A stretch of 64,000 nt of DNA from an uncultured beta proteobacterium (GCA_963758215.1 CAVWUN010000003.1:923-64922), one strand, 5' to 3'; positions 36,991-59,455 are shown, counted from the first letter of the stretch. Numbers and translations are program-made. Notes: generated by a model not told the origin, from the sequence alone.

Positions 36991-37999
<1,009 letters not shown>

Positions 38000-38035
38000 C
38001 CGACCGCGGCGCGGCCGACGGCGCGGCCTTGCCGC

Positions 38036-38581
38036 ATGCGCTGGCTCGAGCGGCTCGAGGAAGGCCTCGATCGCCTTCCTGATGGCGGCGATGACGCTGC
38101 TGACCTTCATCCAGGTCGTCGCCCGCTACGTCTTCAACTACAGCTTCGTCTGGGCGCTCGAGCTCAACGGCGTCCTGTTCGCCTGGCTGATCTTCATCGG
38201 CATGTCGTACGGCGTGCGCGTCGGCGCCCACATCGGCATCGACGCCGCTGGTCAAGTCGCTGAGGCCGGCGGCGGCGCGCGCGGTCGGCATGGTCGCCGC
38301 GACGCTGTGCATCGTCTACGCGGTGATCGTCGCGGTCGGCGGCTGGCAGTACGTGCACAAGATGTACGACGTCGGCATCGAGATGCAGGACCTGCCGATC
38401 CCGCAGTGGATTCCGCGCCTCGGTCCTGCCGCTCGGCTTCGCGCTGCTCGCGCTGCGCTTCGCGCAGGCGTTCGTCGCGCCTGGCGCGCGGCGAGAAGAC
38501 CCGCTCCTCGCACGACGAGGCGGCGGAGGCGCTCAAGCTGCGCGAGCAGGCGGCCTGCCGCTCGGCGAGGTGCGCGAATGA
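38036..38581 (+). CDS. dctQ: TRAP small permease DctQ (frameshifted)
   Basis: MRWLERLEEGL, QVVARY, WLIFIGMSYGVRVGAHIGID. Confidence 0.8.
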
Positions 38582-39862
38582 CGACCGCGGCGCTGTTCGC
38601 GATGCTGTTCGTGTTCATGCTGCTCGGCATGCCGGTCGCGGTCGCGCTCGGCCTGTCGTCGCTGCTGACGATCCTGTTCTTCGCGCCAGGACTCGCTCGC
38701 CTCGCTGTCGCTCAAGCTCTACGAGACCTCGGAGCAGTTCACGCTGCTCGCGATCCCGTTCTTCATCCTCGGCGGCACGTTCATGACCACCGGCGGCGTC
38801 GCCAAGCGGATGATCCGCTTCGCCAACGCCTGCATCGGCCACCTGCGCGGCGGCCTGGCGATGGCCTCGGTGCTCGCCTGCATGCTGTTCGCGGCGGTCT
38901 CGGGCTCGTCGCCGGCGACGGTCGTCGCGGTCGGCTCGATCGTCATCGCCGGCATGGTCAAGGCCGGCTACTCCGCAGAACTTCGCCGCCGGCGTGATCT
39001 GCAACGCCGGCACGCTCGGCATCCTGATCCCGCCGTCGATCGTGATGGTCGTCTACGGCGCGGCGACCGAGACCTCGGTCGGCAAGCTGTTCATGGCCGG
39101 CGTCGTCCCGGGCATCGTGCTCGGGCTGATGCTGATGGTGGCGATCTACGTTCGCGCGCGCATGCTCGAAGCTGCCCAAGCAGCCGCGCGCCTCGCTGCG
39201 CGACATCGCTCGTCTCCGGGCGCGATTCGCTGTGGGGGCTGATGCTCATCGTCATCATCCTCGGCGGCATCTACGGCGGCGTCTTCACGCCGACCGAGGC
39301 CGCCGCGGTGGCCGCCGTCTACGCCTTCTTCATCGCCGTCTTCGTCTATCGCGACATCGGCCTGAAGGACGTGCCGCGCGTCCTGGTCGATGCCGGGCAA
39401 GGTGACGGTGATGCTGATGTTCATCATCGCCAATGCGCTGCTGTTCGCGCACGTGCTGACGACCGAGCGCATTCCGCAGGCGATCGCCGAGACGATCGTC
39501 GGCTGGGGCATGGCGCCGTGGCAGTTCCTGATCGTCGTCAACATCCTGCTGCTCATCGCCGGCATGTTCATGGAGCCGACCGGGATCATCCTGATCATGG
39601 CGCCGATCCTCTTCCCGATCGCCCAGCGGCTCGGCATCGACCCGGTGCACCTCGGCATCATCATGGTCGGTGAACCTGGAGATCGGCATGGTGACGCCGC
39701 CGGTCGGCCTCAACCTGTTCGTGACCTCCGGCATCACCGGCATGTCGATCGCGCAGGTGGTGCGCGCCGCGCTGCCGTGGTCGCTCGGTGCTGCTCGTCT
39801 TCCTGGTGATCGTCACCTACGTGCCGCAGCTGTCGCTGTGGCTGCCGAAGATCCTCTTCTGA
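38578..39862 (+). CDS. dctM: TRAP large permease DctM (frameshifted)
   Basis: LLAIPFF, SGSSPAT, GILIPPS, FTPTEAA, TPPVGLNL. Confidence 0.85.
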
Positions 39863-39873
39863 CGCGGCGTCGC

Positions 39874-40500
39874 ATGGCCAAGGCTTCCCATGCCGAGCCG
39901 CGATTCACCGACGACGATGCAGCCCGCGAACATCTCGAGGCGCTGCGCTGGCCGCGCGGTCCCGTCTGCCCCCACTGCGGCGGCACGCGGCGCAACGTGC
40001 GCCTGCAGGGCGCATCCCATCGGCCCGGGCTGCTGTTCTGCGGGGATTGCCGCAGCCAGTTCACCGTGACCGTCGGAACGGCGTTCGAGCGCTCCAAGGT
40101 CCCGCTCCACAAGTGGCTCCTCGCCACCCACCTCATGTGCTCGCCCGACGAGCGGATGTGCGCCCATCGACTGCATCGCACCCTGGGCGTGACCTACAAG
40201 ACCGCGTGGCACATGGCGCACCGCATCCGCGCGTTCATGGGTGATCCCCGGCACGGTTCCATGGGAGCACGTGCCGAGGTGAACGAGTCCGACGAGGCCT
40301 ACTGGTGGACGTTGGACGGACACCCATGATCTCCGCGCCCTCGGAGACCGACGTGCTGCGGCGGATGCTCTCCACGCCCCGGCGGTCGAAGCGCGCCAAG
40401 CCAGGGCTGCCGAAAAGGCCGGCCAAGAAGTAGCGGGGCGAGCGTCCCGACACGGCGGTCGCCAGATCCGGCCGCGCCGCTTGCGTTTGTCACGTATCTA
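39874..40500 (+). mobile_element. IS1595-family (ISXO2-like) transposase remnant
   Basis: ORF 39874..40329 has LRWPRGPVCPHC...CGDCRSQFTVTVGT.FE.SK.PL.KW, GVTYKTAW, and stops just after a degenerate first catalytic motif (ESDEAY); small basic ORF 40326..40433 follows; right boundary approximate. Confidence 0.8.
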
Positions 40501-40759: not shown

Positions 40760-41437
40760 TTGGATTCGGATTGCTCGTGGTTGCGTCTGTCGGCCTTGGC
40801 CTGCGCGGCGGCTTGCGTCGTGCTGGCGGGCTGCAGCGGGATGAGTGAAATCGCTGGCCGGCCCTTCTTCTACAAGCAGGGCCCGGGCGATACGCCGTCC
40901 GAGGTCAAGGATAAGGCGGGCGTGGTGATGAAGGCGCCTGAAGCCGCGCCCGCCGCCGCGATGCCCTCACGTCAGGAGATGGCTCGCTCGCCCGCACCCG
41001 TCGCCGAGCGCCGGGAACCCCAACAGACCCTCGCGCAGGTGACCCCGCGTGCGCCATCCGCCGCGCCGCGAGCCGAAGCCTACGCCAGCGAAGTCCTCGG
41101 CGGATATACCCAGGCTACGCCCTACGGCGATCTCCTCTTCATCTCCGGGCAGATTGCCATTGATCTGCGCAGCGGCGCATTCGACGGCGGCCAGGACATG
41201 ACCGGGCAGACGCGCCAGGTGCTCGAAAACATTCGCACCATCCTTGCAAATAGCCGACTGACCCTCGCGAACGTGGTGTCCACGACGGTCTACCTTTCGA
41301 ACATCAACAATTTTGCATTGCTGGACAGCGAGTACCACGCCTTCTTCAAGGGCATCCCGCCGGCGCGCACCGTGGTCGAGGTTGCACACCTGCCGCGCGG
41401 TGCGCTGGTGGAAATCTCGGTGATTGCCGGCCGATGA
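40760..41437 (+). CDS. Lipoprotein with C-terminal RidA/YjgF domain
   Basis: SD GGGAGG before TTG; lipobox LAGC; Pro/Ala linker; YTQA, LFISGQI, PARTVV (catalytic Arg), LPRGALVEI. Confidence 0.82.
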   Translation: MDSDCSWLRLSALACAAACVVLAGCSGMSEIAGRPFFYKQGPGDTPSEVKDKAGVVMKAPEAAPAAAMPSRQEMARSPAPVAERREPQQTLAQVTPRAPSAAPRAEAYASEVLGGYTQATPYGDLLFISGQIAIDLRSGAFDGGQDMTGQTRQVLENIRTILANSRLTLANVVSTTVYLSNINNFALLDSEYHAFFKGIPPARTVVEVAHLPRGALVEISVIAGR

Positions 41438-41572
41438 TGGAGCATCGATCGGCCGATCGGATGGTTGGGAGTGTTTGCATTAAAGCTGTGTAGGGTCGGA
41501 ACGCGGTGTAGGCGGGGATATGGGGCACCGCGAGCCCTTGACAAAGCGGGCCTTAAACAACAGGAGGACGAC

Positions 41573-41971
41573 GTGAAGGCGAAACCAGCATTAATGGCTG
41601 TTGGGGTTTTCGTGGGTGCCATGGCATGCAGCGTGGGGGTCTATGCGGATACGCCGCTCTTTCCGTCGGCCCAGGTCTCCGGTGAGCATGAAAATTTCCG
41701 CAACCTGTACCGGGAGCGATGCGCTTTGTGCCACGGGGCGAACGGCGAGGGCACGGACAACGACTATCCGCGCTTGGCGCCTGCGCTGAAGGGCAATCCC
41801 TTCGTGCAGCATGCGCCGCCGGCTGCGATCATCGCCGTGATCCGCAAGGGCAGGACAGGCGAGCAAAGGCTCTATCACGAGTCGTACCCCAACATGCCCC
41901 CGTTCGGCGTGGAGATGGTCTTCGACGTGGACGGGTTGGTCCACTTCCTGCAGAACGACTTGCAGCAATAG
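41573..41971 (+). CDS. Periplasmic monoheme class I cytochrome c
   Basis: SD GGAGG before GTG, signal peptide, CALCH, distal Met in NMPPF. Confidence 0.9.
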   Translation: MKAKPALMAVGVFVGAMACSVGVYADTPLFPSAQVSGEHENFRNLYRERCALCHGANGEGTDNDYPRLAPALKGNPFVQHAPPAAIIAVIRKGRTGEQRLYHESYPNMPPFGVEMVFDVDGLVHFLQNDLQQ

Positions 41972-42022
41972 GCGATCCACTGAACGTTGAACCAACCTAC
42001 TCGAACAATGTGGAGGAGAACC

Positions 42023-43441
42023 ATGAAGTGGCATACAAGGTTCACAATCAAGATCGCCACGGCAGCGCTGGTGTTCGCGGCGCCGTTCCTGGCGACGGAG
42101 TCCCAGGCCATGCCGAGCTTCGCCCGGCAGACCGGCATGGTGTGCAATTCCTGCCATATCGGTACCGATAACGTTCCCAACTTCACGCGCACGGGCCGCA
42201 TCTTCGCGATGCGCGGCTACATGCGGCCGGTCGTGCGCGAGAAGCTCCGCACGGAAGGACAGACCGAGGAAGGTGAGCCGCAATATGGCGGGCAGTATGT
42301 CTCGCTCAACTGGACCGACTTCTGGGCGGCGCGGCTGGTCTCCTCGTTCGCCGGCCAATCGAAGACGAACGGGGTGAAGAGCGACGTGACGTCGAGTCCG
42401 CTGTCGCGCATGTCGTTGTTCTACACGGGCCCGATCACGGACTGGCTGGGCCTGTGGTCGGAGATCGGTTACCTCGGGAACGACACGGTGAGATCCGTCA
42501 CCACGGCGAACCCGGGCCCCACCGGAATCAACTTCTTCGCCTACGACGAGTATCGGCTGTCCACCTCGCGCACCATCGGCCCCGACAGCTTCATCGGCGC
42601 ATCACTGGGTAACGAGCCGGGCGACGTGGTTACCCAGTTCGTGTTCCCGCTGGGCATTCCCCGCTTCTTCAACCTGGGACAGGGCGGCGACGGTCATTCG
42701 CTGAACATGAGTACGTTGAGCCTGCACGCGTTCCTGAACGACAGCCTGTGGCTGCAGTTCGCCCCCAACACCGGGGTGACGAACAACAGCTTCTCGAACG
42801 GCTGGCAGCAGTATTACGCTGTCGCCTATGACATGTTCCGCAAAACGGACAACGATCTGTGGCTGGGCCTGGAATACGAGCGCGGCAACGACAACGCGTC
42901 GATCCTGACCCCGACGAAGGTCAGCTTCATCTGCCCAACCACCTGTCCGACCGGCGTGACGGATTCGGCACTGTCGTTCAGCAACACGCTCGGCGGACGC
43001 TCGGTTGCCGGCGCTCCGGTGGAAGTGGTCAAGAACTTCACCACTTACGCGATCCGTGCCGAACATGTGGCCGCCGACCGGGGTCCGCATAGCTGGGTCG
43101 CCATGATCCAGGCAGGCGGCACGAAGCAGGATTATGTGAGCGGGGCGAGCGCGAAGCGCGATGTCATCGGGGCTTACCTGCGCTACTTCTACAAGCGGAC
43201 GTACGGTTTCTACGCGTCGTGGGCCAGGGACACGGAGTACAAGTACACGAGTCCGGCCGGGGTCGAGAGCGACTTTGGCAACGCCGTCACCAAGAACCTC
43301 ACCCTGCTGTGGAATCCGGCGATGAACTTCAGCATGCACTTCAGCTACAGCCCGGATTCCAAGTCGTCGGTGTTCAACAGCGCCACCCAGACCCCGAATA
43401 CGTCTTCGAGCTGGGAGTGGGGCGTGGAGTACAGCTTCTAA
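42023..43441 (+). CDS. cyc2: Cyc2-type outer-membrane cytochrome-porin fusion
   Basis: Signal peptide, then PSFARQTGMVCNSCH...P.F...GR.F...GY; amphipathic beta-strand body; C-terminal beta-signal WGVEYSF. Confidence 0.85.
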   Translation: MKWHTRFTIKIATAALVFAAPFLATESQAMPSFARQTGMVCNSCHIGTDNVPNFTRTGRIFAMRGYMRPVVREKLRTEGQTEEGEPQYGGQYVSLNWTDFWAARLVSSFAGQSKTNGVKSDVTSSPLSRMSLFYTGPITDWLGLWSEIGYLGNDTVRSVTTANPGPTGINFFAYDEYRLSTSRTIGPDSFIGASLGNEPGDVVTQFVFPLGIPRFFNLGQGGDGHSLNMSTLSLHAFLNDSLWLQFAPNTGVTNNSFSNGWQQYYAVAYDMFRKTDNDLWLGLEYERGNDNASILTPTKVSFICPTTCPTGVTDSALSFSNTLGGRSVAGAPVEVVKNFTTYAIRAEHVAADRGPHSWVAMIQAGGTKQDYVSGASAKRDVIGAYLRYFYKRTYGFYASWARDTEYKYTSPAGVESDFGNAVTKNLTLLWNPAMNFSMHFSYSPDSKSSVFNSATQTPNTSSSWEWGVEYSF

Positions 43442-43460
43442 GAAAGATCCATCGACGTTT

Positions 43461-43515
43461 CTCTCCTTCCCGGTCGGATCGCGCTCGATCCGACCGGGTC
43501 GAGGAGAGGTTTGTT
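43461..43515 (+). terminator. Long stem-loop after cyc2 (weak terminator or mRNA stabiliser)
   Basis: 13-bp perfect stem CCCGGTCGGATCG/CGATCCGACCGGG plus outer CTCTCCT/AGGAGAG, then GTTTGTT. Confidence 0.65.
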
Positions 43516-43612
43516 GCTGACTGGCATATGAACGCAGCGGTCCGCCACGGGCCGGCCCTGCGCAACACCAGCGCGCCGACGTGCCGACTAAACCGCCCCC
43601 CTTTTCACCGCG

Positions 43613-44746
43613 ATGGCCGTGCCCACCCGACGTGAGCGCATTTGGGACGCTCCCACGCGGCTGTTCCACTGGAGCCTCGCGACGGCCTTCCTGGGCGACT
43701 GGCTCACGCGCGATGCACGCTATCTCGATATCCACGAATTTCTCGGCTACGCCATCGGCGGCCTCGTCCTGTTCCGCGTCGCCTGGGGCTTCGCCGGGAC
43801 GCGCTGGGCGCGGTTTGCGAGCTTTCCGCTTTCCGCGCCGTCCGGACTGCGCTATCTCGCTGCCCTCTCCCGTGGCCGCCACGGCCATTATCTCGGGCAC
43901 AACCCGGCCGGCAGCCTGTCGATCTATGCCTTGCTCGTCTTGGCCCTCCTGGAGGTCGCCACGGGCGTCCTTGCGCTGGGCGCGGAGAAGCACCAGGGAT
44001 TGCTCGCGGGCAGATTCCGCTACCCGGTGGGAGATGCTGCGCATGCGATTCACCAGTGGCTCGCCTACGGGATGCTCGCGGTCGTGGGGCTGCACATCGC
44101 CGGCGTGCTGGTCGGATCCTTCGCCGACCGCCAGAACCTGGTCGCCGCGATGCTCACCGGATACAAGCGAACGGGCGACGCGCTTGCGGGTGTCGACGCG
44201 AAGCGCGGCATCGCCGGCGCGATCGCGCTGGCCGTGGTTCTCGGCGCCCTCGCGTACTTTCGCGGCTACCTCCTGGCCGGCGCGGGGCACCCCTATCGGC
44301 CCTATGGGTTGCCGGCGCTGCCCATGGACGCCGTCTGGCAGAGCGAGTGCGGCGGCTGCCATCTCGCCTTTCATCCCTCTCTCCTGCCCGCGCGATCCTG
44401 GTCGAAGATGCTCGCGGAGCAGCAGGCGCATTTCGGCGAGGACCTCGGCTTGAGCGCTGAGACCCTGCGTCATCTCGGGGCCTTCGCGGCCGGCAACGCC
44501 GCCGATGCGATCGAGTCTCCCGTGGCGTGGAAGATGGCGACGACCATTCCTGCGGCGTCCGTCCCGTTGCGTATCAGCGCCACGCCGTACTGGGTGGAGC
44601 GCCACTCCCGGCTCGACACGGCGGTCTGGACGCGCGTGCATCGGTCCGAGTGCGAAAGCTGCCACCGTGACGCCGAGGCCGGGACGTTCCTGCCCGGGGC
44701 GATCGCTCTCGATCTGGGCAAATCCACCGCACGCAAAGGGAAATAG
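43613..44746 (+). CDS. Cytochrome b (Ni-hydrogenase b-type) fused to a diheme cytochrome c (DHC) domain
   Basis: IWDAPTRLFHW, GHNPAG, four TM His; C-terminal ECGGCH..F.P.LLP.RSW...HFGEDL and CESCH. Confidence 0.9.
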   Translation: MAVPTRRERIWDAPTRLFHWSLATAFLGDWLTRDARYLDIHEFLGYAIGGLVLFRVAWGFAGTRWARFASFPLSAPSGLRYLAALSRGRHGHYLGHNPAGSLSIYALLVLALLEVATGVLALGAEKHQGLLAGRFRYPVGDAAHAIHQWLAYGMLAVVGLHIAGVLVGSFADRQNLVAAMLTGYKRTGDALAGVDAKRGIAGAIALAVVLGALAYFRGYLLAGAGHPYRPYGLPALPMDAVWQSECGGCHLAFHPSLLPARSWSKMLAEQQAHFGEDLGLSAETLRHLGAFAAGNAADAIESPVAWKMATTIPAASVPLRISATPYWVERHSRLDTAVWTRVHRSECESCHRDAEAGTFLPGAIALDLGKSTARKGK

Positions 44747-44750
44747 CTGG

Positions 44751-45161
44751 ATGTCATCGATGCGAGGCTTCGCAGTCGGGATGACAATCGCGCTGCTGGG
44801 AATGAGCGCGAAGGCCGCGGCGGACCCCGTGGACGAGTTGCTGCAGGTGTTTCGGACGCAAGGCGCGAACGGATTCACCGTTGCGGCCGGGGAGCAGCTC
44901 TGGGAGCGCAACACGACCGATCCCAGGACCGGACAGGTGCGGCGCTGCGCCCTCTGCCACACCACGGACCTCAGGCAGATGGGCAAGCACGCCACTACCG
45001 GCAAGGCGATCGAGCCGATGGCGCCGTCGGTCAATCCGAAGCGTCTGTCCGACAAGGCGAAGATCGAGAAATGGCTGGAGCGCAATTGCAAGTGGACGCT
45101 CGGCCGCGTATGCACGCCGCAGGAGAAGGGCGATGTGCTGACAATGATCCGGAGTCGATAA
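44751..45161 (+). CDS. SHP-like (DUF1924) heme c protein
   Basis: Signal peptide, CALCH, GKAIEPMAPSVNPKR, KIEKWLERNCKWTLGRVCT..EKGD. Confidence 0.88.
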   Translation: MSSMRGFAVGMTIALLGMSAKAAADPVDELLQVFRTQGANGFTVAAGEQLWERNTTDPRTGQVRRCALCHTTDLRQMGKHATTGKAIEPMAPSVNPKRLSDKAKIEKWLERNCKWTLGRVCTPQEKGDVLTMIRSR

Positions 45162-45177
45162 ACATGAAAGGGGAGCA

Positions 45178-45720
45178 ATGAGAACGAAGATCCACCGGCG
45201 CGCCGCGCTTGCGCCCGCCACGGCCGTGCTGCTCATCGTCGGTTCCACGCTTGTGGCGCCGGCCCGCGCAGCATCGGGAACGGTCCTGGTGCCCGAAGAT
45301 GGTGCCTACCTGAAGGAGTGCGGAGCGTGCCACATGGCCTTTTCGCCGGAGCTGCTGCCGGCTTCGTCGTGGCGCAAGCTGATGGGCCGGCTGGACGACC
45401 ATTTCGGCGAATCGGCCAAGCTCGATGCGCCGAACCAGGGCCGGATCACCGGCTACCTGGTGGCGAACGCCGCGGACCGTGCCACGAATTCCGAATCACG
45501 TGCGATCATGGCTTCGCTGCATGCCGACGAGGTGCCGCTGCGCATCACGCAGGTTCCATACATCGCCGGGCTGCATGCCGCAGTGCTGGATCCTGTATGG
45601 AACGGAACGCCGCGGCCCAAGACCCTGACGGAGTGCGGGGTGTGCCACAGCGGCATCCGGTTCGGGGATTTCAGGAGCAAGACGTTCACGGTGAACGACG
45701 AATCGTTCCGGAGCAAATAG
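45178..45720 (+). CDS. Diheme cytochrome c (DHC family)
   Basis: YLKECGACHMAF.P.LLP..SW, DHFGE, RIT..PY, CGVCH. Confidence 0.88.
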   Translation: MRTKIHRRAALAPATAVLLIVGSTLVAPARAASGTVLVPEDGAYLKECGACHMAFSPELLPASSWRKLMGRLDDHFGESAKLDAPNQGRITGYLVANAADRATNSESRAIMASLHADEVPLRITQVPYIAGLHAAVLDPVWNGTPRPKTLTECGVCHSGIRFGDFRSKTFTVNDESFRSK

Positions 45721-45737
45721 TCAGGATAAGCAGCGCC

Positions 45738-46307
45738 ATGGATGCGACCCCTAAGGTGCGAAGGATCTTCGATGCGGCGGCACTTTTGCTTGCATTCTGC
45801 GCCACGTCGGGATCCTTTCCCGCAGCGGCGGTCGACGACCGCTTCGATGCCACCAAGTACGACAAGGGCGGCTTCGCCCCGGCCAAGGATCCCACCTACC
45901 TCAAGGAATGTGGCGCATGCCACTTCGCCTATCTTCCCGGCACGCTGCCGGCCAGGTCGTGGCACGCGATCATGGCCAAGTCCGACGATCACTTCGGGGA
46001 ATCGCTCTCGCTTCCCCCGCATCTCGCCATGCAGATCGAGCAGTACCTGGCGGCGAATGCGGCGGACCATTCGGACTATCGCGGCTCTGCCCTGATCCTT
46101 GACCGGCTCGAGGACAACGTCACGCCGATGAAGATCATCCGGCTGCCATACATCCGGCAGCGCCACCAGGTGATCCGCAAGCTGCTGAACGATCATCCGC
46201 AGAATTCGATCAAGGGACTGAGCAACTGCACCGATTGCCATCCGCGCGCGGCCGAGGGGTCGTTCGTTTACCGCGAGGTTGTGGTGCCCGGCATCATCGA
46301 ACGTTGA
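45738..46307 (+). CDS. Second diheme cytochrome c (DHC family)
   Basis: YLKECGACHFAY.P..LPARSW, DHFGE, SNCTDCH. Confidence 0.88.
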   Translation: MDATPKVRRIFDAAALLLAFCATSGSFPAAAVDDRFDATKYDKGGFAPAKDPTYLKECGACHFAYLPGTLPARSWHAIMAKSDDHFGESLSLPPHLAMQIEQYLAANAADHSDYRGSALILDRLEDNVTPMKIIRLPYIRQRHQVIRKLLNDHPQNSIKGLSNCTDCHPRAAEGSFVYREVVVPGIIER

Positions 46308-46449
46308 GGCTGGCCGTGCTCCGGAATGACAAGGTGCTGCAAGAAGCGTTCGCAATGCTGGTTGCCGTGGCCCCGTGCGACGGGGCTGACCTACGATCCG
46401 AGGGGGTCGGATCATGTTGTAGTATCGAATTCACCAGGAGGTGTTTGCG

Positions 46450-46719
46450 ATGAGCGATGAATCGAAGGTTTCAAGGCGCGTTTTCTTTCGGGGTGCCGCG
46501 ACGCTGGCGGGGGCTGCGCTGGTTGCCGGCGTGATACCGATTCGCGACGCCCGCGCGCAGACGAAGCTCGCCAAGGACGTGATGAAGTACCAGGACACGC
46601 CGAAGGACGGCCAGAAATGCGAGGACTGCACCTACTTCCAGGCGCCTAAGTCCTGCGGCCTGGTCGCGGGCGACATCTCGCCGCAAGGCTGGTGCACCGC
46701 CTACAACAAGAAGAAGTAA
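46450..46719 (+). CDS. Tat-exported small HiPIP, Iro-like
   Basis: SD AGGAGG; SRRVFF twin-arginine signal; YQDTP...CEDC..F.....C..V.G.ISP.GWC. Confidence 0.9.
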   Translation: MSDESKVSRRVFFRGAATLAGAALVAGVIPIRDARAQTKLAKDVMKYQDTPKDGQKCEDCTYFQAPKSCGLVAGDISPQGWCTAYNKKK

Positions 46720-46795
46720 CCGAGCACGGCGGGCGGGCTGCTGCGCCCTCGCCTTCCCGTTTCCCCGGGCCAGCGGCGCCCGGGGAAGCGCCCAT

Positions 46796-47197
46796 CTATC
46801 GGGGCGTGCGCACCGCGCGGTCCTTGCGCCCCACGCAGCCGGCGCAACGCCCGTAGAGGGTGAGGTCGTGGCCCTCGAGCGTGAATCCGCGTGGCGCCAG
46901 GCGCCGCAGGTCGCCCGGGCAACCAGGCACGTCGTACACCCGCCGGCAGACCGAGCACTGGAAGTGATGATGGTGCCCGGCCTCCGCCAGCTCGTAGCGC
47001 GCGCGCTCGCCCGGTAGCGTGATGCCCTGCAAGGTGCCATCGGCCACCAGCAGCTTGAGCGTCCGGTACACCGTGGCCAGCCCCAGGGAGCGCACGACGC
47101 CGCGCGCTCCCTCGAGCACCTCGCGGGGCGACAGCGGCCGCCGCGACGCCCGGATCACCGACATGATCGCATCGCGTTGGCGGGTCGCACGTTCCAT
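46796..47197 (-). CDS. Fur-family metalloregulator
   Basis: TRQRDAI, GLATVYRTL, HHHHFQCSVC, GRCAGC. Confidence 0.9.
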   Translation of the reverse strand: MERATRQRDAIMSVIRASRRPLSPREVLEGARGVVRSLGLATVYRTLKLLVADGTLQGITLPGERARYELAEAGHHHHFQCSVCRRVYDVPGCPGDLRRLAPRGFTLEGHDLTLYGRCAGCVGRKDRAVRTPR

Positions 47198-47226
47198 GGG
47201 CATTTGCGGCACCCCCTTGCGGGCCG

Positions 47227-47260
47227 ATGTTGTAGGATAATGATAAGTGATTCTCAACAT
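47227..47260. promoter_or_regulatory. Fur-box-like operator between the regulator and the metal ABC operon
   Basis: GATAATGATAAGTGATTCTCA (47236-47256), flanked by inverted ATGTTG/CAACAT, AT-rich in a GC-rich background. Confidence 0.65.
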
Positions 47261-47311
47261 GCCGGCGCCCCCCGGTGCAGGCCCGCGCCCAGACTGACAG
47301 ACAATCCGGCA

Positions 47312-48169
47312 ATGCACCGCTTCCTGCTCGCCGCGCTGGTCAGCGCATGCATGGCGCCCCTTGCGTTCGCCGCACCCGTCAGGATCGTGGCGGCGGAAGG
47401 TGTCTATGGCGACATCGCCCGCCAGATCGGCGGCTCGAGCGTCGCGGTGACGAGCCTGCTCGACCGGCCCAGCCAGGACCCCCACGAATTCGAGCCCGGC
47501 GCCGCTGCCGCGCGCAGCATCGCCGACGCGGACCTCGTGGTCTACAACGGCGCCGGCTACGACGCCTGGGCAAGCAGGCTGCTGTCGGCCTCACGCGTGC
47601 CTTCGCGAAAGGTGATCGAAGTGGCCCGGCTTGCCGGCAAGCGCGCCGGTGACAATCCCCATGTCTGGTACGACCCTGCCGCGGTCCTCGCGCTGGGGCG
47701 TGCGCTGGCCGATGCGCTGTCCGCGCTCGATCCGGGCCACCGCATCCAGTACGCGGCGCACCTCGTTACTTTCGAGCATTCGATGCAGGCGCTCGCCGAG
47801 CGCGTCGTGCGCCTGCGCAAGTCGTTCGGCGGCAGCGCGGTCGCCGCCACGGAACCCGTCTTTGGCTACATGGCGGACGCCCTCGGGCTGGAGATGCGCC
47901 ACCGCGGCTTCCAGCTTTCGGTCATGAATGGCACCGAGCCGAGTGCGCGGGACATCGCGGCCCTCGAGAAGGACCTGCGAACGCGCGCGGTAAAGGCTCT
48001 CATCGTCAACGTGCAGACCGGCGGCGCCGTCACCGAACGCATGCGGGCGATCGCGTCGGGCGCCGGAGTGCCCGTGGTCGTCGTGACCGAGATGCCACCT
48101 CCCGGCGTGGAATACCAGCGGTGGATGTCGTCGCAGCTCGATGCGCTCGCACGCGCCCTCGCACCATGA
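47312..48169 (+). CDS. Cluster A-I metal (Zn/Mn/Fe) ABC substrate-binding protein
   Basis: Signal peptide, QDPHEFEP, DNPHVWYDP, TEPVFGY. Confidence 0.9.
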   Translation: MHRFLLAALVSACMAPLAFAAPVRIVAAEGVYGDIARQIGGSSVAVTSLLDRPSQDPHEFEPGAAAARSIADADLVVYNGAGYDAWASRLLSASRVPSRKVIEVARLAGKRAGDNPHVWYDPAAVLALGRALADALSALDPGHRIQYAAHLVTFEHSMQALAERVVRLRKSFGGSAVAATEPVFGYMADALGLEMRHRGFQLSVMNGTEPSARDIAALEKDLRTRAVKALIVNVQTGGAVTERMRAIASGAGVPVVVVTEMPPPGVEYQRWMSSQLDALARALAP

Positions 48170-48965
48170 CCCCGTACGCGATCGAGTTGGACCGGGCAAC
48201 CATCGTGCGCGACGGGCGCACGGTTCTCTCGGACGTGAGCATCGCCGTACGTGCCGGCGAGTTCATCGGGGTATTCGGGCCCAACGGCGCCGGCAAGACG
48301 ACGCTCCTGCACGCGATCCTCGGATTGCTGCGGCCGGCCAGCGGCCGGATCACCGTGCTCGGCGCCCTTCCTTCGCGCGGCAATCCGGCGGCCGGCTACC
48401 TGCCGCAGCACCGCACGTCGGTCGCCGACCTCGGCCTGCGCGGCTGGGACTTCGTGGCGAGCGCGCTGCACGGTGAGCGCTGGGGACTTCCCGCCCTCGA
48501 TACGGCGGGACGCGACGCCGTGGAACGGGCGCTCGCCGCCGTCGAGGCGCAGTCGCTCGCGGCGCGGCGCTGTGCGAGCTGTCCGGGGGCGAGCGCCAGC
48601 GGCTGCTGCTGGCCCAGGCGCTGCTCGGCAATCCGCAGCTCCTGTTGCTCGATGAGCCGCTGCTCAGCCTCGATCCCCATTACCAGCAGGCGACCGTCGC
48701 CCTGGTCCGGCGCATCCAGCAGGCCGAGGGCATCACCGTGCTCTTCACTGCCCACGAGCTCAATCCGCTGCTCGAGGCGATGGACCGCGTACTGTATCTC
48801 GGGCAAGGGCGCGCCGCGCTCGGGTCGGTCGACGAGGTCATGACGAGCGAGGTCTTATCGCGCCTGTACGGCACGCCGATCGAGGTGCTGCGCGTGAATC
48901 ACCGCATCCTGGTGATGTCGGGATTGGGGCTGGTCGAAGCCGACGCCCATCGCCACGATGCTTGA
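48166..48965 (+). CDS. Metal ABC transporter ATPase (one frameshift near 48570)
   Basis: GPNGAGKTT in ORF 48121..48843; LSGGERQR and LLDEP in the frame of ORF 48645..48965. Confidence 0.85.
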
Positions 48966-49773
48966 ATACGAGTTCATGCGCACCGCATTCATGGCGGGCG
49001 GCGTGGTGGCAATCGTCGCCGGAGCGGTGGGATTCTTCCTCGTCTTGCGCAACCTCACCTTCGCGGGGCACGCGCTGTCGCACGTGGGATTCGCGGGGGC
49101 CGCCGGCTCGGTTCTCATCGGCCTGAGCCCCTTGTGGGGATTGCTGTGCTTCACGCTCGCCGCGGCGGTCGCGATGGGGCTGCTCGGCGAGCGCCTGCGC
49201 GGGCGCGACGTCGCCGTGGGCATCATCCTGTCGCTGTCGCTCGGGTTCGGGGTTCTCTTCCTCTACCTGTACTCCACGCACGCGACCCAGGCCACCGCGA
49301 TCCTGTTCGGCAACGTGCTGGGCATCGCGCCCGCAACGGTCTGGACTCTGCTCGCCTTGAGCGGCGCGAGCCTGGTTGCGCTCGCCGCAATGTCCCGGCC
49401 GCTGCTCTTCGCCACGCTCGCGCCGGAAATGGCCGAGGCCAAGGGCGTATCGCTGCGGCTGGTGTCGGTGCTGTTCCTCGCGATCGTCGCCGTCGCGGTC
49501 GCCGAGGCGGCGCAGGTAGTGGGCGTGCTGCTCGTGTTCGCGCTGATGGTCGGACCGGCGGCCGCGGCGCAGCGCCTGACCTCGCGCCTCGCCCCGGGCA
49601 TCGCCCTGTCCGTGGCGCTCGCGTTGGCCGAGACCTGGCTCGGCATCGCCCTCGCCTATGTCACCGACTGGCCGGCCACCTTCTGGATCGTGCTCGTCAG
49701 CTGCGCGGCGTATTTCCTCGCCCTGGCGCGCCCGATGAACGCGGCGCCCCCGGAGGCGGGCCACGCCGCGTAG
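48958..49773 (+). CDS. Metal ABC transporter permease (ZnuB/ABC-3 family)
   Basis: FAGHALSHVGFAG, ILFGNVL, VGVLLVFALMV.P. Confidence 0.9.
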   Translation: MLEYEFMRTAFMAGGVVAIVAGAVGFFLVLRNLTFAGHALSHVGFAGAAGSVLIGLSPLWGLLCFTLAAAVAMGLLGERLRGRDVAVGIILSLSLGFGVLFLYLYSTHATQATAILFGNVLGIAPATVWTLLALSGASLVALAAMSRPLLFATLAPEMAEAKGVSLRLVSVLFLAIVAVAVAEAAQVVGVLLVFALMVGPAAAAQRLTSRLAPGIALSVALALAETWLGIALAYVTDWPATFWIVLVSCAAYFLALARPMNAAPPEAGHAA

Positions 49774-50453: not shown

Positions 50454-53400
50454 TCACGCCGTGCGCACCGCGACCTCCACTCGATGCTCCGCCCGGTCGT
50501 CCACAAGGCGCGCGCGGCCGTCGGCTTGCGCGACGCCATCCAACGACACGCTCGTCTCGCCCGATGTTTCGCCCGCCGCGGCAGGTTCGCGGCGCACCGC
50601 GATCTCGTAGACGGTCGCGCCGTACCGGTAGCGCATCGTGAATGCGGTCCAGTGCGCCGGCAGGAGCGGCGCGAAGCGCAGTCGATCCCCTTCGACGCTT
50701 AGTCCGAGCAGCGATTCCACGATGAGGCGGTACATCCAGCCGGCCGAGCCCGTGTACCAGGTCCAGCCGCCGCGGCCGGTGTGCGGCGCTACCGCGTAGA
50801 CGTCGGCGGCGATCACGTACGGCTCCACCTTGTAGGTCGCGACGTCCTCCGGCGTGCGCGCGTGGTTGACCGGGTTGATCATCGTCGCGAGCTCCCACGC
50901 GCGGCGTGCGTCGCCCAGCGCCGCGAACGCCATCGCCGCCCAGATCGCGCGCGTGCGTGTACTGGCCGCCGTTCTCGCGCACGCCGGGCACATAGCCCTT
51001 GATGTAGCCGGGATCGAGGCTCGACGTGTCGAACGGCGGATCGAGCAGCTGGATCAGCGCGTCGTCGCGGCGCACGAGCCGCTCGTCGACCGCGTCCATC
51101 GCCGTGCGCGCGCGCTCGGCATCGCCCGCGCCCGACAGCACCGACCAGCTCTGCGCGATCGAATCGATCTGGCATTCGGCGTTGCTCGCCGAGCCCAGCG
51201 GCGTGCCGTCGTCGAAGTAGGCGCGCCGGTACCACGCGCCGTCCCAGCCGTGCTGCTCGAGATTGCGGCGCAGCTTGTCGCGCCTCGGCCTCGCAGCGCT
51301 CGGCGAAGGCCGCGTCGCCTCGCGCTGCGCGCGACCTCGGCGAACTGCGTCGAGCACGTCGCACAGGAAGAAGCCGAGCCAGACGCTTTCGCCCTTGCCC
51401 TTGCTCGCCGACCAGGTTCATGCCGTCGTTCCAGTCGCCGGAGCCCATCAGCGGCAGGCCGTGCGCGCCGAAGCGCAGGCCGTGCAGGATCGGCGCGCAC
51501 GCAGTGCTCGTAGAGCGCTGGCCGCTTCCGCGGACCGGCGCGGCAGGTCGTAGTAGGAGTCCTCGCTCGGCGTTGACCGGGCGGCCCTCGAGGAACGGGA
51601 CCGGCTCGTCGAGCACGCCGCTGTCGCCGGTCGCCTCGCACGTAGCGGCACGTCGCCAGCGGCAGCCACAGGTAGTCGTCCGAGCAGTGCGTGCGCACGC
51701 CGCGGCCCGACGGCGGATGCCACCAGTGCTGGACGTCGCCTTCCGCGAACTGGCGGCTCGCGCAGCGCAAGCAGGTGCTCGCGCACGAGCGCCGGGCTCG
51801 GCGTGGACCAGCGCCATCACGTCCTGCAGCTGGTCGCGGAAGCCGAAGGCGCCGCCCGACTGGTAGAAGCCGCTGCGCGCCCAGAGGCGGCACGCCAGCG
51901 TCTGGTAGAGCAGCCAGCCGTTGGCCAGCACGTTGAGCGACGCGTCCGGGCGTTTCCACCTGCACCGCGCCGAGCGTGCGCTTCCAGTGCGCGCGCACCG
52001 CCTCGAGCGCGCCGTGCGGCGGCGGCCGGTCCCGCGGAAGCGCTGCACGAGGCGCGCTCGCGTCGTCGGCATTGCGGCCCGACGCCGAGCCGGAAGACGA
52101 TCTCGCGCTCCTCGCCGTCGGCCAGCTCGAACGCGACCTGGATCGCGCGCGCAGGGATCGAGCGCCGCGCCCACCCTGCCCGACAGCCGCGCGCGCGCCA
52201 TCGCCGCCGGATTGCGCGAGCGCGCCGTTGCGGCCGAGGAACTCGGTGCGGTCGCCGGTCACGCTGCGCGCGGCATCGTCCGACGTCGAAGAACGCGACG
52301 CGCTCGGCGAACTCGGTGTTGTAGGCGTTGCGCGCGAACAGCGCGCCGCTCTTCGGCGTCGATCTCGGTGATCACGTGCATCGCCGTCTTCGGCGCGCAG
52401 GTCGCCCAGCACCCATTCGACGTAGCCGGTGGCGGAGAGCCGGCGCGGCCGGCCCGAGTGCGTTGCGCACCTTCAGCACCGCGAACTTGACCGGCGCGTC
52501 GATCGCCACGATACACCGCACAGCTCGGAGCGATGCCGTCCTCGCTGTGCTCGAAGACGCTGTAGCCGAAGCCGTGCCGCGTGACGTAGGCGCCGGCGCC
52601 GCGGCGCGGCAGCGGCGTCGGGCGACCAGAAGTGGCCGCGTCTCCTCGTCGCGCAGGTAGAACGCCTCGCCGCTCGCGTCGCTCACCGGATCGTTGTGCC
52701 ACGGCGTGAGGCGGAACTCGTGGGCGTTCTCGCTCCAGGTGTAGCGCGATGCCCGCTCTCCGAGATCACGCGTGCCGAAGTGCGGGTTCGCGAGCACGTT
52801 GACCCAGGGCGCCGGCGTCGCCTCGCCCGCCGCGCGTCGTGATGACGTACTCGCGCCCGTCGGGCGTGAAGCCGCCGAGCCCGTTGAACGAGGATCAGAT
52901 CGCGCGCGGCGGCGCGCGACGGCGCGCGGTGTCGACCGGCGCTGGCTGCGCGTCGGCACGAGGCGCGGCACGCGCGCCTCCGCGGCGCCGCGGCGCGTCG
53001 ACCTGCTCGGCGAGCGCTGCCCGCGCCGGTCGGTGATGATGGCGCGCGCCACCGTCTGCAGCAGGATGCGGTCCTCCTCCGCGATCTGCTCCGCGCGCCG
53101 CACGAAGATGCCGCCCGGCCGGTCGATCACGTGCGCTTCGACGCCCGCGGCGATCAGCCCCATGATCTGGTCCTGCAGCACGCTGCCGGTAGCCGCCGCG
53201 ATCCTCGTTCCAGATCACGAGATCGACGGCCAGCCCCTTCAGGCGCCAGTACGCGTGCGCCTGCACGAGCTGGCGCACGAGGTCGATGTTGTCCGCGTCG
53301 CCGATCTGCAGCAGCACGATCGGCAGGTCGCCCGAGATCGCGTAGCCCCACAGCCCCGACTGCCCGCGCCGGTTCCTGAGCGAGGACGCCCGGCTCCGCG

Positions 53401-56400
53401 CGCAGCGACGCATTGGCGTAGATCACCGAGCTCGGCGAGGCGCGCCGTAGAGCTGCGCGTCGGCCTCGGTGGCATTGATCTGGCGCAGCACCACCTGGCT
53501 GTGCGTCCACGCCAGCTCGAACACGCGATCGGCGAGGTGCCGGTCCTGGTATTTCTCGACCAGCCCCAGCGCGGCCTCGCGCGTCTCGGCCGACGCCGGA
53601 GACGATGTCGATCGTCGCCGTCTGCTCCGGCTCGAGCGTCGATGCGATGGCGGATCGCGACGATCGGATCGAGCACCGAGCCCTCGCTGCCCGACAGCGC
53701 TGCCGGCGTCGGTCATCGCCTGCGGCGCGGCGACGCGTGCGGCCGCGACCGATGAAGCGCATGCGATCGGTCTCGTAGGAGACGTCCGCGCGACTCGGCG
53801 CCGTGCACCGCCATCAGGTGGAACATCCACGGCGGCTGCTCGTCGCGCGAGCGCGGCCGGCGCGTGCACAGGATCGCCTGGCGCGCCGCGCACGATCTCG
53901 GTCTGCACGAACAGATTGCTGAACGCCGGATGCAGCGCGTCCGCGGCCGGCGGCGCCAGCACGACCTCCGCGTAGCTCGTGACCTCGATCGTCGCGCCGC
54001 GTGCGCGAGCGGTTGGTGATGCGGACGCGGCGCAGCTCGATGTCGTCTTCCGGCGAGACGGCGATCTCGGTGTGCGTCTCGATGTCGTCGTCGCGGCGGC
54101 GGAATTCGGCGCGCGCCTTCGGTGAAGATCGCCTCGTAGTGCGTCGGCGCGCTTGCAGCGTCGGCTGGTGCGCGGTCGACCAGAACTCGCCGCTCGCCAC
54201 GTCGCGCAGGTAGCAGAACGTGCCCCAGTTGTCGCACGTGGCGTCTTCGCGCCAGCGCGTGACCGCGAGGTCCTTCCAGCGGCTGTAGCCGCCGCCCGCG
54301 TTCGTGACCATGACGTGATAGCGGCCGTTCGACAGCAGCTGCACTTCCGGCATCGGCGTGTCGGGGCTGTCGAAGCACGCGCACCGGCGTCTCCGGCGCC
54401 GCTCGGCGATCGCGCGCATCGTCGACAAGCTCGGCGGCGTGCGAGTAGAGCGCGCGCGGCCTTCGGCACGCGCTCCTGCAGCAGCAGCAGGCGTCGCCTG
54501 GAACAGCGGATCCGACTCGAAGCGCCTCTGCATCGGCCGGTCGAGCAGCACGTAGCGCCAGCGACAGCAGGCTCATGCCCTGGTGATGCGCCATGAACGA
54601 GCGCACGACGGCGCTGGTCTGCCCGCGCGGCAGGCGCGCCGGCGTGTAGTCGATCGCCTCGTAGAAGCCGAATCGCCCGGCGAGCCCTTCGGCCGCGAGC
54701 CGCTGCAGGTTGCGGCACGCTGCCTCGGGCGCGACCATCAGCGCCAGCGCCGACGCGTACGGCGCGACGACCAGGTCCTCGGCGAGCCCGCGCTTGAGTC
54801 CCAGGCCCGGCACGCCGAACGCGCGGTACTGGTAGTTGAGGCTCGCGTCGACCGCGTTGTAGCCGGATTCCGAGATGCCCCACGGCACGCCGCGCTGCTT
54901 GCCGTACTCGATCTGCCGCTCCACCGCCGCGCGGCAGGTCTGGTCGAGCAGCGTGTTCTCGTAGGTCGGCATCACCAGCAGCGGCATCAGGTACTCGAAC
55001 ATCGAGCCGCTCCACGACAGCAGCACCGGCTCGCCCGCCGGCGGTCGTGAGCAGGCGCCCGAGCGCGAACCAGCTCTCCTGCGGCAGCTGGCCCTGCGCG
55101 ATCGCCGACGAAGCTGCGCGAGCCGCGCCTCGGAGGCGAGCAGGTCGTAGTAGCTCGCGTCGCGCCGGCGCTCGCTCGACGTTGTAGCCGATGGCGAGCA
55201 GGTGGCGCGCCTGGTCGTAGAGGAAGTCGTACTCCATGCGCGCGAGCTCGTCGCACTGCAGCGCCAGGCGCTCGATCGCGCGATGCGCTCCGCAGCGCGC
55301 TGGCGCGCCTGCGGCCGGCACGCTCGAGCTCGAGCCATGCGCCGTGCGCCGCGCAGGCGTCGCGCCGCTGTCGACGCCCGCGAGCTCGCCGCCAGCGTCG
55401 GCAGCTCGCGCAGCGTCGGCATCCGCGCGCAGCCGGGAAGTCGTCGCAGCTCGTCGCTGCAGGCTGCGGCCACTGGCGCGAGCGAGGCCAGCGCATCGGC
55501 TCGCAGACAGGCTCGCCGACGTCGCTCGCGTCGGGCACCGCAGCGGCGACGGAATCGCGCCGGGCACCCGCGCTCGATGCGGCGACGCTCGGCGATGCTC
55601 GCGTCCAGCCGCTCGAGCGCACTGCGCGCGCCGCGTCGATCGTCGCGGGCGCGAGTCGGTACGCGCGGCGTCCAGATCGCGCTCGCAGGCGAGCCAGCGG
55701 CGCTGCCGGCGTCGCGCCCGCCGCGTCGCCGAGCACGCGCAGCGTGTCGCCCAGGCCCTCGAACCATCGCGGCGTCGACGATCGGCGTCGTCGGCAAGCG
55801 CGAGCAGGCCCGGCCGCAACGTCAGCAGATGGCCCGCGAGGTTGCCGCTGTCGACCGTCGAGACGTAGCGCGGCGGCAGCGGCTGCAGCGTCTGCGTGTC
55901 GTACCAGTTGTAGAAGTGGCCCTCGTAGCGCTCCAGCGCTGCCATCGTGCCCATCGCGTTCGTCGTGCGCTCGACGAGCTGCCCGGCCGGGACGTAGCCG
56001 AAGTCGTAGGCCGCCAGGTTCGCGAGCAGCGCCAGGCCGATGTTCGTCGGCGACGTGCGATGCGCGACGCGTCGGCGCCGGGATGCTCCTGGAAGTTGTC
56101 CGGCGGCAGCCAGTGGTCGTCCGGGCCGACGAAGGTCTCGAAGAACGCCCAGGTCCTGCGCGCGAGCTTGCGCAGGAAGTGCGTCTGCTCGGCGGTGAGC
56201 TGCGCCTCGCGGCGACGCGAGCGGCCGGCTGATCCACCAGGCGATGGCCGGCGAGGCGAACCACAGCAGCGAGGATCGGCGCGGCGACGCGCCAGCGCGG
56301 CCGGCGCGGACGCGTCAGCCAGGACCGCCGCGGCCGACGGCGATCGACCGGCGCGATCCACATCGACCGGAGTGACGCCGCGAGACCCGTGCGATGCGTG

Positions 56401-59305: not shown

Positions 59306-59455
59306 GCTCGGTTCTCCTATCTGCCTGGTCATTCAAGAGCGAACGGCGCCTTGCGGCGCCGTTCGCTCTCGCGCGATGTCAAGCGGTGCCCGGACTCCCA
59401 CCTCGCCGTTCGACGTCCGTCACGCCCGCATGCAGATAGGCAAGGATCCGTTGCC

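Follow-up and report, generated by a model that had tools for sequence, protein, structure and literature searches.

We analysed a 64,000-nt stretch of DNA (the window) from the genome of an uncultured beta proteobacterium (3.06 Mb in 27 contigs, 63% complete), in which positions 40760..46719 hold a cassette of eight open reading frames (ORFs), all on the + strand, that includes a Cyc2-type fusion of a cytochrome and a porin. Pfam and NCBIfam searches gave the gene order as a Rid-family (RidA/YjgF) lipoprotein (40760..41437, start codon inferred), a monohaem class I cytochrome c predicted to be periplasmic (41573..41971; PF00034/PF13442), the Cyc2-type barrel (42023..43441; 472 aa, matched by no Pfam or NCBIfam family), a cytochrome b561 fused to a dihaem cytochrome c (CytB-mDHC, 43613..44746; PF01292 + PF09626), the Sphaeroides haem protein SHP (44751..45161; DUF1924, PF09086; PDB 1dw0, E 1e-18), two soluble dihaem cytochromes c (DHC 1, 45178..45720; PF09626; PDB 2fw5, E 2e-25; and DHC 2, 45738..46307; PF09626) and a HiPIP with a twin-arginine leader and a C-x2-C-x8-C-x12-C motif (46450..46719; PF01355; best PDB match PioC, E 1e-7). 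From like loci, we infer that the host genus is Usitatibacter.

The gaps between successive genes are 135, 51, 171, 4, 16, 17 and 142 bp, and the nine CXXCH motifs fall one each in the cytochrome c, the barrel and SHP, and two each in CytB-mDHC and the two DHCs. ORF calls and the motif count bear out the eight co-directional genes and nine haem motifs of a preliminary description of this DNA, and Pfam supports its cytochrome c, cytochrome b-DHC, SHP, two DHCs and HiPIP. That list of parts stands for the redox genes and fails at gene 1, which it had missed and which encodes a Rid-family lipoprotein instead of a redox protein. A strong RNA hairpin followed by a U-rich run lies 3' of cyc2 (43460..43509, + strand; z -5.7) and recurs at the same place in six of the seven relatives folded (z -2.3 to -4.1); it is likely a terminator or stabiliser. 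A further hairpin (46758..46790, + strand; z -3.1) closes the cassette between the HiPIP gene and a convergent Fur-family gene. Neither a sigma-70 promoter nor an FNR box was found within the cassette.

The barrel protein and the Cyc2 family

Statements on published work extend, here and below, to the portions of each source that were available. The authors who defined the Cyc2 family screened for AXPXFAR[Q/K][T/Y] before a single CXXCH near the N-terminus, a signal peptide and a length of at least 365 aa (PMC8406198). The window protein has 472 residues, a single CNSCH at 41-45 preceded by AMPSFARQT (AMPSFARQT-GMV-CNSCH) and a signal peptide, which, like all export signals reported here, was assigned by eye. 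An AlphaFold2 model from a 96-row alignment (pTM 0.79) has 16 barrel strands as counted from secondary structure, with the haem domain at low confidence. Foldseek returned OprP as the top match (Z 21.0 over 312 residues), which ties for best in a wide search, and the Cyc2 barrel has been reported as OprP/OprO-like with 16 strands (PMC8406198); no sequence match was found among solved structures. When a profile of 40 members of the lineage was compared with 37 canonical-motif Cyc2-like proteins by HHalign, the two aligned over 351 columns with a probability of 99.9. Judged by sequence and predicted fold, the barrel is a divergent Cyc2-family fused cytochrome-porin.

The signal peptide, the AXPXFAR[QK][TY] motif, the single CXXCH, a length above 365 aa and the predicted 16-strand OprP-like barrel are all shared with the Cyc2 of A. 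ferrooxidans and M. ferrooxydans PV-1 and with Leptospirillum Cyt572 (PMC8406198, PMC7029218). The window protein differs from these in its position on a deep separate branch, in a CxxxC loop, and in carrying P-x-F six residues past CXXCH rather than PXL at four, which is a consensus feature of Cyc2 that lies outside the authors' screening criteria. Of the 120 closest matches, 118 could be parsed, and all of these have P-x-F at six. Four acidic residues of the barrel (E147, D175, E176 and E198) are invariant in 96 of 96 homologues, and the C-x3-C pair, at residues 304-308 in a long loop, is kept in 95-96 of 96. The lineage formed a separate deep branch in both quick trees (77 rows, and 62 rows after removal of 22 near-redundant ones; SH-aLRT support only), whose sequences were chosen by similarity and comprise no named reference of cluster 2 or cluster 3 (A. 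ferrooxidans Cyc2, Cyt572). Six Cyc2 proteins from five genomes of the family that yields the names Sideroxydans/Sideroxyarcus branch elsewhere, so the barrel does not belong to cluster 1. The earlier identification as Cyc2 is upheld at the level of the family, by the screening features, the barrel and profile homology, whereas a cluster 1 affiliation is contradicted by the tree.

Fe(II) oxidation has been shown for Cyc2 of each of the three clusters (PMC8406198), and measured Cyc2 potentials are +208 and -130 mV. An Atlas search with one homologue (P0032) returned unnamed porin/cytochrome clusters only, and cluster look-ups for 20 distant Cyc2-like proteins gave almost no names. Prediction of a complex between Cyc2 and the Rid lipoprotein scored 0.10 against a mark of 0.32, and a single-sequence fold of the cassette cytochrome c was unusable (pLDDT 43). 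Haem porins with P-x-F also make up a wider lineage, about 30% identical (P0128-P0158 and locus L049); at L049, two cytochromes c flank the haem porin and Rid is missing.

Conservation, layouts and possible mobility

Searches with the barrel returned 199 homologues, the best 120 of which (self excluded) are 49-80% identical to it. The close Cyc2 clade is present in eight of 46 genomes of the genus, counting the unpublished genome G001 as a non-carrier, and one further genome has a 30% relative; across 400 genomes of the order, beyond the host's own, only that distant relative was found. Loci were compared in two sets, 13 from titled genomes (eight Betaproteobacteria and five Gammaproteobacteria) and the best 80 of 89 from metagenomes, where each denominator is the number of loci long enough for the test. 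A cytochrome c gene lies upstream of cyc2 in 57/57 metagenome loci with at least 700 bp upstream, and Rid is present in all 19 that show both flanks, as well as in 10 of the 13 titled loci (it is missing from L033, L037 and the short L036). The cytochrome b/SHP module occurs in eight of eight titled betaproteobacterial loci as far as the contigs reach and in none of the five gammaproteobacterial ones; among metagenome loci, SHP is present in 8/10 and HiPIP in four of eight informative loci. The identical eight-gene order recurs in L021, L069 and L080, so the arrangement is not due to chance. The modules co-occur elsewhere, as the preliminary description required, and the parts stay together through rearrangement.

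Three layouts were distinguished. In one, as in the window, all genes are co-directional; in another, confined to one sub-lineage, the SHP module is flipped to a divergent position upstream and ccm genes follow downstream; the remaining layout consists of cytochrome c, cyc2, Rid and HiPIP without the SHP module. In nearly all arrangements, cyc2 is accompanied by either a second cytochrome c or a HiPIP. Across 25-64 loci, pairwise distances for SHP, Rid, cytochrome c and cytochrome b correlate with those for Cyc2 (Spearman 0.64-0.83; SHP 0.64, cytochrome b 0.83; 0/499 permutations), although kin among the loci are not independent. In the sub-lineage of L027 and L028 the cassette directly adjoins cbbR-cbbL-cbbS-cbbX. 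The third-position GC content (GC3) of the eight genes ranks in the bottom 0-7.5% of a reference set of 1962 genes, which is biased to well-scoring genes, and a truncated remnant of an IS1595-family transposase (39874..40329, + strand; PF12760) sits directly upstream. Because of the low GC3, the IS1595 remnant, the patchy spread and the differing flanks, the data suggest that the cassette is mobile. Three short pieces identical to it were found, at a low share, in one soil DNA run, from which the sequence may have come, and no RNA dataset was listed as containing it.

Other arrangements were seen along the way. A flavocytochrome c sulfide dehydrogenase subunit immediately follows the second cytochrome c of the cassette at L024:11664-13201 and at L141, and NnrS genes lie near cyc2 loci of the Steroidobacteraceae type (L032, L033, L037, L116, L121, L122 and L140). 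Other members of the genus carry a different, canonical-motif Cyc2 with a dihaem cytochrome: at L057 it directly follows cbbR-cbbL, at L055 it is accompanied by a HiPIP, and at L056 it lies close to a multihaem/NrfD cluster.

In the literature covered, where subscription papers are thinly represented, we came across no account of a Cyc2 combined with either an SHP module or a Rid protein, in agreement with the preliminary description, which knew of no report of this exact architecture; precedents exist for pieces only. The consulted portions of PMC7029218, PMC13741234, PMC11412304, PMC5371394, PMC10654088 and 10.1101/2021.03.22.436458 contain no such cluster. The nearest case is Bradyrhizobium, in which cyc2 is clustered with a HiPIP and three cytochromes c (PMC5566968); Cyc2, HiPIP and periplasmic cytochromes are together there as well, but the partners are Cyc1/CycA1 homologues, and the text available describes neither SHP, DHC and cytochrome b nor Rid. 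Unlike known Cyc2 proteins, that of the window is accompanied by a Rid lipoprotein and an SHP module. The arrangement thus appears to be real, conserved and undescribed, with known parts around a divergent Cyc2 and one strange part, the exported Rid.

The Rid lipoprotein, the SHP module and the HiPIP

The product of gene 1 scores 113.2 bits against TIGR00004 (cut-off 106.25) and also matches PF01042. It consists of a lipobox (LAGC), a short conserved N-terminal segment, a Pro/Ala linker and a C-terminal Rid domain, and a lipobox-like motif is present in 54 of 58 loci. Among 49 distinct sequences, the equivalent of Arg105 is found in all, including those with as little as 33% identity, that of Tyr17 in 43 and that of Glu120 in 45. 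Within the genus, the lipoprotein occurs in exactly the eight Cyc2 carriers and in none of the 38 other genomes (E 1e-22); with the N-terminal region as query, two proteins only were retrieved. Rid proteins bearing this arginine hydrolyse imines formed by amine oxidases, and Rid proteins pre-empt metabolite damage (PMC4433059). The cassette protein resembles the RidA deaminases of that work in passing the family model and in retaining the equivalents of Tyr17, Arg105 and Glu120; it differs in being lipid-anchored, exported, equipped with a long linker and tied to a haem porin, and it mostly has Asp where solved RidA proteins have a conserved Asn. The literature searched offers no precedent for a Rid protein that is exported, catalytically intact and associated with a haem porin, and the protein may point to new periplasmic chemistry. 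In another genome (G030; L065:2950-4488), a second Rid of the cassette type forms a fusion with a periplasmic binding-protein domain (PF01497) and lies beside the ccm operon.

The KWLERNC-x7-C segment of SHP aligns with R. sphaeroides SHP such that the Asn sixth ligand, the disulfide cysteines and the distal Trp are kept, and CytB/mDHC and a soluble DHC adjoin the gene, as is characteristic of the SHP operon. The cassette shares with the R. sphaeroides operon (PMC2909971) the gene order CytB/mDHC, SHP, sDHC, the lack of a two-component system, the Asn ligand and the disulfide, and it shares the same order with the copy beside mtoAB in Ferrigenium straubiae (PMC5566968; 10.64898/2026.01.22.701106). 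It differs from both in having an extra DHC. Moreover, the SHP module is stably tied to Cyc2 in many genomes, whereas the mtoAB linkage of Ferrigenium straubiae is reported to be unique and perhaps coincidental. A close SHP type is present in seven of the eight carriers in the genus and in none of the other members; the contig of the eighth carrier ends early. Seven genomes of the genus have a different SHP-DHC-cytochrome b operon, followed in six of them, as far as could be seen, by a response regulator and a kinase. We rejected chance adjacency of the operon: the linked SHPs have an NCKW motif in 30/30 cases, versus NCNDV in the seven stand-alone sensor-kinase operons. In unrooted trees, the linked SHPs form one lineage and the linked DHCs another (support 100/99).

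The cassette has three families in common with ircABCD, an iron-responsive cluster of Gallionellaceae (Slit_1321-1324), namely a cytochrome b, an SHP-like monohaem protein and a dihaem cytochrome c; Fe(II) induces ircABCD in Sideroxydans ES-1, and in CL21 the cluster tracks the ability to oxidise iron (PMC8788666, PMC12442390). It differs from ircABCD in that the cytochrome b is fused to DHC, the genes form a separate sequence lineage and the module is physically joined to cyc2. IrcC is also lacking: in the window the gap between cytochrome b and SHP is 4 bp, so there is no gene for the hypothetical protein IrcC, while IrcC is present in the irc-type loci L170 and L171. Across 401 genomes, irc-type SHPs were the four best matches outside the clade. 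In the unrooted SHP, DHC and cytochrome b trees, however, the irc-type and linked lineages are separate, and the two are not grouped in the tree of cytochrome b. The supplements of PMC12442390 hold no Usitatibacter, Casimicrobi- or Steroidobacter entry.

The HiPIP scores 66.9 bits against the Iro model NF041615, for which the cut-off is 100. As a small Tat-exported HiPIP that is a likely carrier, it resembles its counterparts in PioABC of Rhodopseudomonas palustris and in Iro of Acidithiobacillus (PMC13741234). In contrast to PioABC, the cassette has neither a decahaem cytochrome nor a PioB/MtrB porin, and PF11854 was not found in the 63% complete genome; in contrast to Iro, the HiPIP lies below the Iro cut-off. 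Two unrelated types of HiPIP have been recruited, that of the window and that of L033 and L037.

Probable electron uptake, competing explanations and host context

We favor, with a probability of roughly 0.45, the reading that the cassette serves, as a set of modules, to take up electrons from a soluble donor outside the cell, for which Fe(II), either free or bound to organics, is the most likely candidate. Electron uptake from an outside donor is likely; the reading is supported by the Cyc2 screening features and profile homology, the Fe(II) oxidation shown for other Cyc2 proteins, the invariant acidic residues of the barrel, the adjacency of cytochrome c, the recruitment of HiPIPs, the Fe(II) induction of the Irc family, the cbb neighbor and the aa3-type oxidase. 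HiPIPs carry electrons at high potential, and terminal oxidases receive electrons from class I cytochromes. The donor would be oxidised at the Cyc2 haem, from which electrons would pass to the adjacent cytochrome c as the likely first acceptor, and from there to the host's aa3-type oxidase by way of the HiPIP or, where HiPIP is absent, of a second cytochrome c, so that a host living by sulfur oxidation or on organic compounds would gain additional energy. The SHP module, as a side branch linked to this chain, would reduce or bind periplasmic O2 or NO and need not lead to quinone, and the membrane-tethered Rid may hydrolyse reactive imines arising in the periplasm during Cyc2 chemistry. The comparisons argue for a modular build, in which Rid, cytochrome c and Cyc2 form the core, SHP, DHC and cytochrome b come from a lineage dedicated to the cassette, and the HiPIP varies; the division into a core and accessory modules follows from the hairpin after cyc2 and from the flipped layout.

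Several observations weigh against this reading. No characterised Cyc2 is close to the window protein, which falls outside cluster 1, and distant Cyc2 homologues are regarded as uncertain in the paper that defined the family (PMC8406198). A sister relationship between the linked module and the irc genes was considered and dropped, as the unrooted trees gave no special kinship. The link to iron oxidation made in the preliminary description stands in part: the family of the SHP module is Fe(II)-induced in Sideroxydans, but the HiPIP misses the Iro cut-off and is absent from four of the eight informative loci. L033 and L037 are without Rid, and the intact catalytic site of Rid points to an organic small molecule. 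The hosts are soil metagenome-assembled genomes with no known iron oxidation, the cbb linkage is limited to one sub-lineage, and neither form I RuBisCO (three of eight carriers versus 15 of 38 others in the genus) nor dsrA is enriched among carriers; a genus-wide link of the cassette to autotrophy or sulfur oxidation was rejected on these grounds.

The preliminary description proposed a complete wire from an extracellular donor to the quinone pool or terminal oxidases. As a single continuous wire, electrons would run from the donor through Cyc2, cytochrome c, both DHCs and SHP to CytB-mDHC and on to the quinone pool, which would supply nitrate reductase or reverse electron transport. Such a path was proposed for the SHP module beside mtoAB (PMC5566968), and the separate linked SHP and DHC lineages, the tracking of Cyc2 distances and the one Cyc2 potential measured at -130 mV are in its favor. 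However, published models run in the opposite direction, from quinol to CytB, DHC and SHP (PMC2909971), and a 2026 preprint calls quinone reduction highly speculative, regards the mtoAB linkage as unique and favors quinol oxidation (10.64898/2026.01.22.701106). Because a hairpin separates the SHP module from cyc2, one sub-lineage has the module in a flipped position and 5/5 titled gammaproteobacterial loci lack it, a single wire is less likely than two linked modules, and we consider it unlikely. Flow in the outward direction, from quinol through CytB-mDHC, DHC, cytochrome c and Cyc2 to Fe(III) chelates or humic acceptors, for respiration or reductive iron uptake, would fit the accepted quinol-to-DHC direction (PMC2909971), and many Cyc2 carriers are not known iron oxidisers (PMC5566968). 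Yet high-potential carriers have been recruited repeatedly, every Cyc2 assayed in the literature covered is an oxidase, and the Fur/Znu neighbors of the window were not seen at the relatives' loci, which leaves this direction quite improbable.

An organic donor, such as an amino-carboxylate, an aminophenol or a humic shuttle, might instead be oxidised at the haem porin, with the tethered Rid hydrolysing the resulting imine. The strict co-occurrence of Rid with Cyc2 in the genus and in the two-flank metagenome loci, the invariance of Arg105, the imine hydrolysis by arginine-bearing Rid proteins (PMC4433059), the binding of organic amines by SHP (PMC2909971) and the origin of the titled records in soil, peat and permafrost collections are all consistent with this explanation. 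We nevertheless think it rather improbable, given that a single haem implies one-electron chemistry, that no flavin enzyme or organic-substrate transporter is conserved nearby, and that L033 and L037 do without Rid. It is very unlikely that the cassette yields no energy and serves to protect the periplasm from NO, O2 or reactive amines: SHP binds O2 and has reported NO dioxygenase activity (PMC2909971; 10.64898/2026.01.22.701106), NnrS accompanies the Steroidobacteraceae-type loci and Rid proteins act against metabolite damage, but an outer-membrane haem porin and a cytochrome c as the constant core would be left unexplained.

Returning to electron uptake, a broader proposal, which we put forward as doubtful, is that an undescribed deep Cyc2 lineage, mobile among common soil Beta- and Gammaproteobacteria, allows hosts not known as iron oxidisers to draw electrons from Fe(II) bound to organics or from soil shuttles that bear amines, with its own periplasmic imine hydrolase clearing the products. 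The periplasmic and inner-membrane steps downstream of Cyc2 are a gap in neutrophilic iron oxidation, and if electron uptake is correct, one 6-kb cassette would join a Cyc2 oxidase to Irc-like carriers, a link so far guessed from expression alone. The role of the SHP/DHC/cytochrome b operon has stayed unsettled for decades, and the co-inherited cassette allows its connection to Cyc2 to be tested on a single cloned fragment. Abundant uncultured soil bacteria would join the iron cycle if the cassette oxidises Fe(II) or donors bound to humics.

The host had been described as otherwise heterotrophic, which does not agree with the presence of a dsr cluster and of SoxA, SoxX and SoxB that score above the NCBIfam cut-offs; the genome also has narGH, an aa3-type oxidase and an FccB-like gene. 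Form I RuBisCO and phosphoribulokinase were not found in the genome, whose incompleteness forbids a claim of absence; only a RuBisCO-like protein (G000:C20:118434-119117) was detected, which is 26% identical to form I and whose gene is cut by the contig end. At another locus of the host (L152, G000:C11:183001-192000), an ExtI-type porin above the NCBIfam cut-off lies beside fragmented multihaem cytochrome genes and is possibly a second porin-cytochrome system. In the window, a Fur-family regulator is divergent from a znuA/ATPase/permease operon (46796-49773), with a GATAATGAT box at 47236; these neighbors were not seen beside the relatives' cassettes. Reading frames are intact in all eight cassette genes. 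The neighboring TRAP transporter genes (37000-39800) are frameshifted, with many further frameshifts at about 51000-59400, including a long downstream gene, and dsrA, coxA and nar genes elsewhere in the assembly are likewise affected; these frameshifts are likely uncorrected assembly errors.

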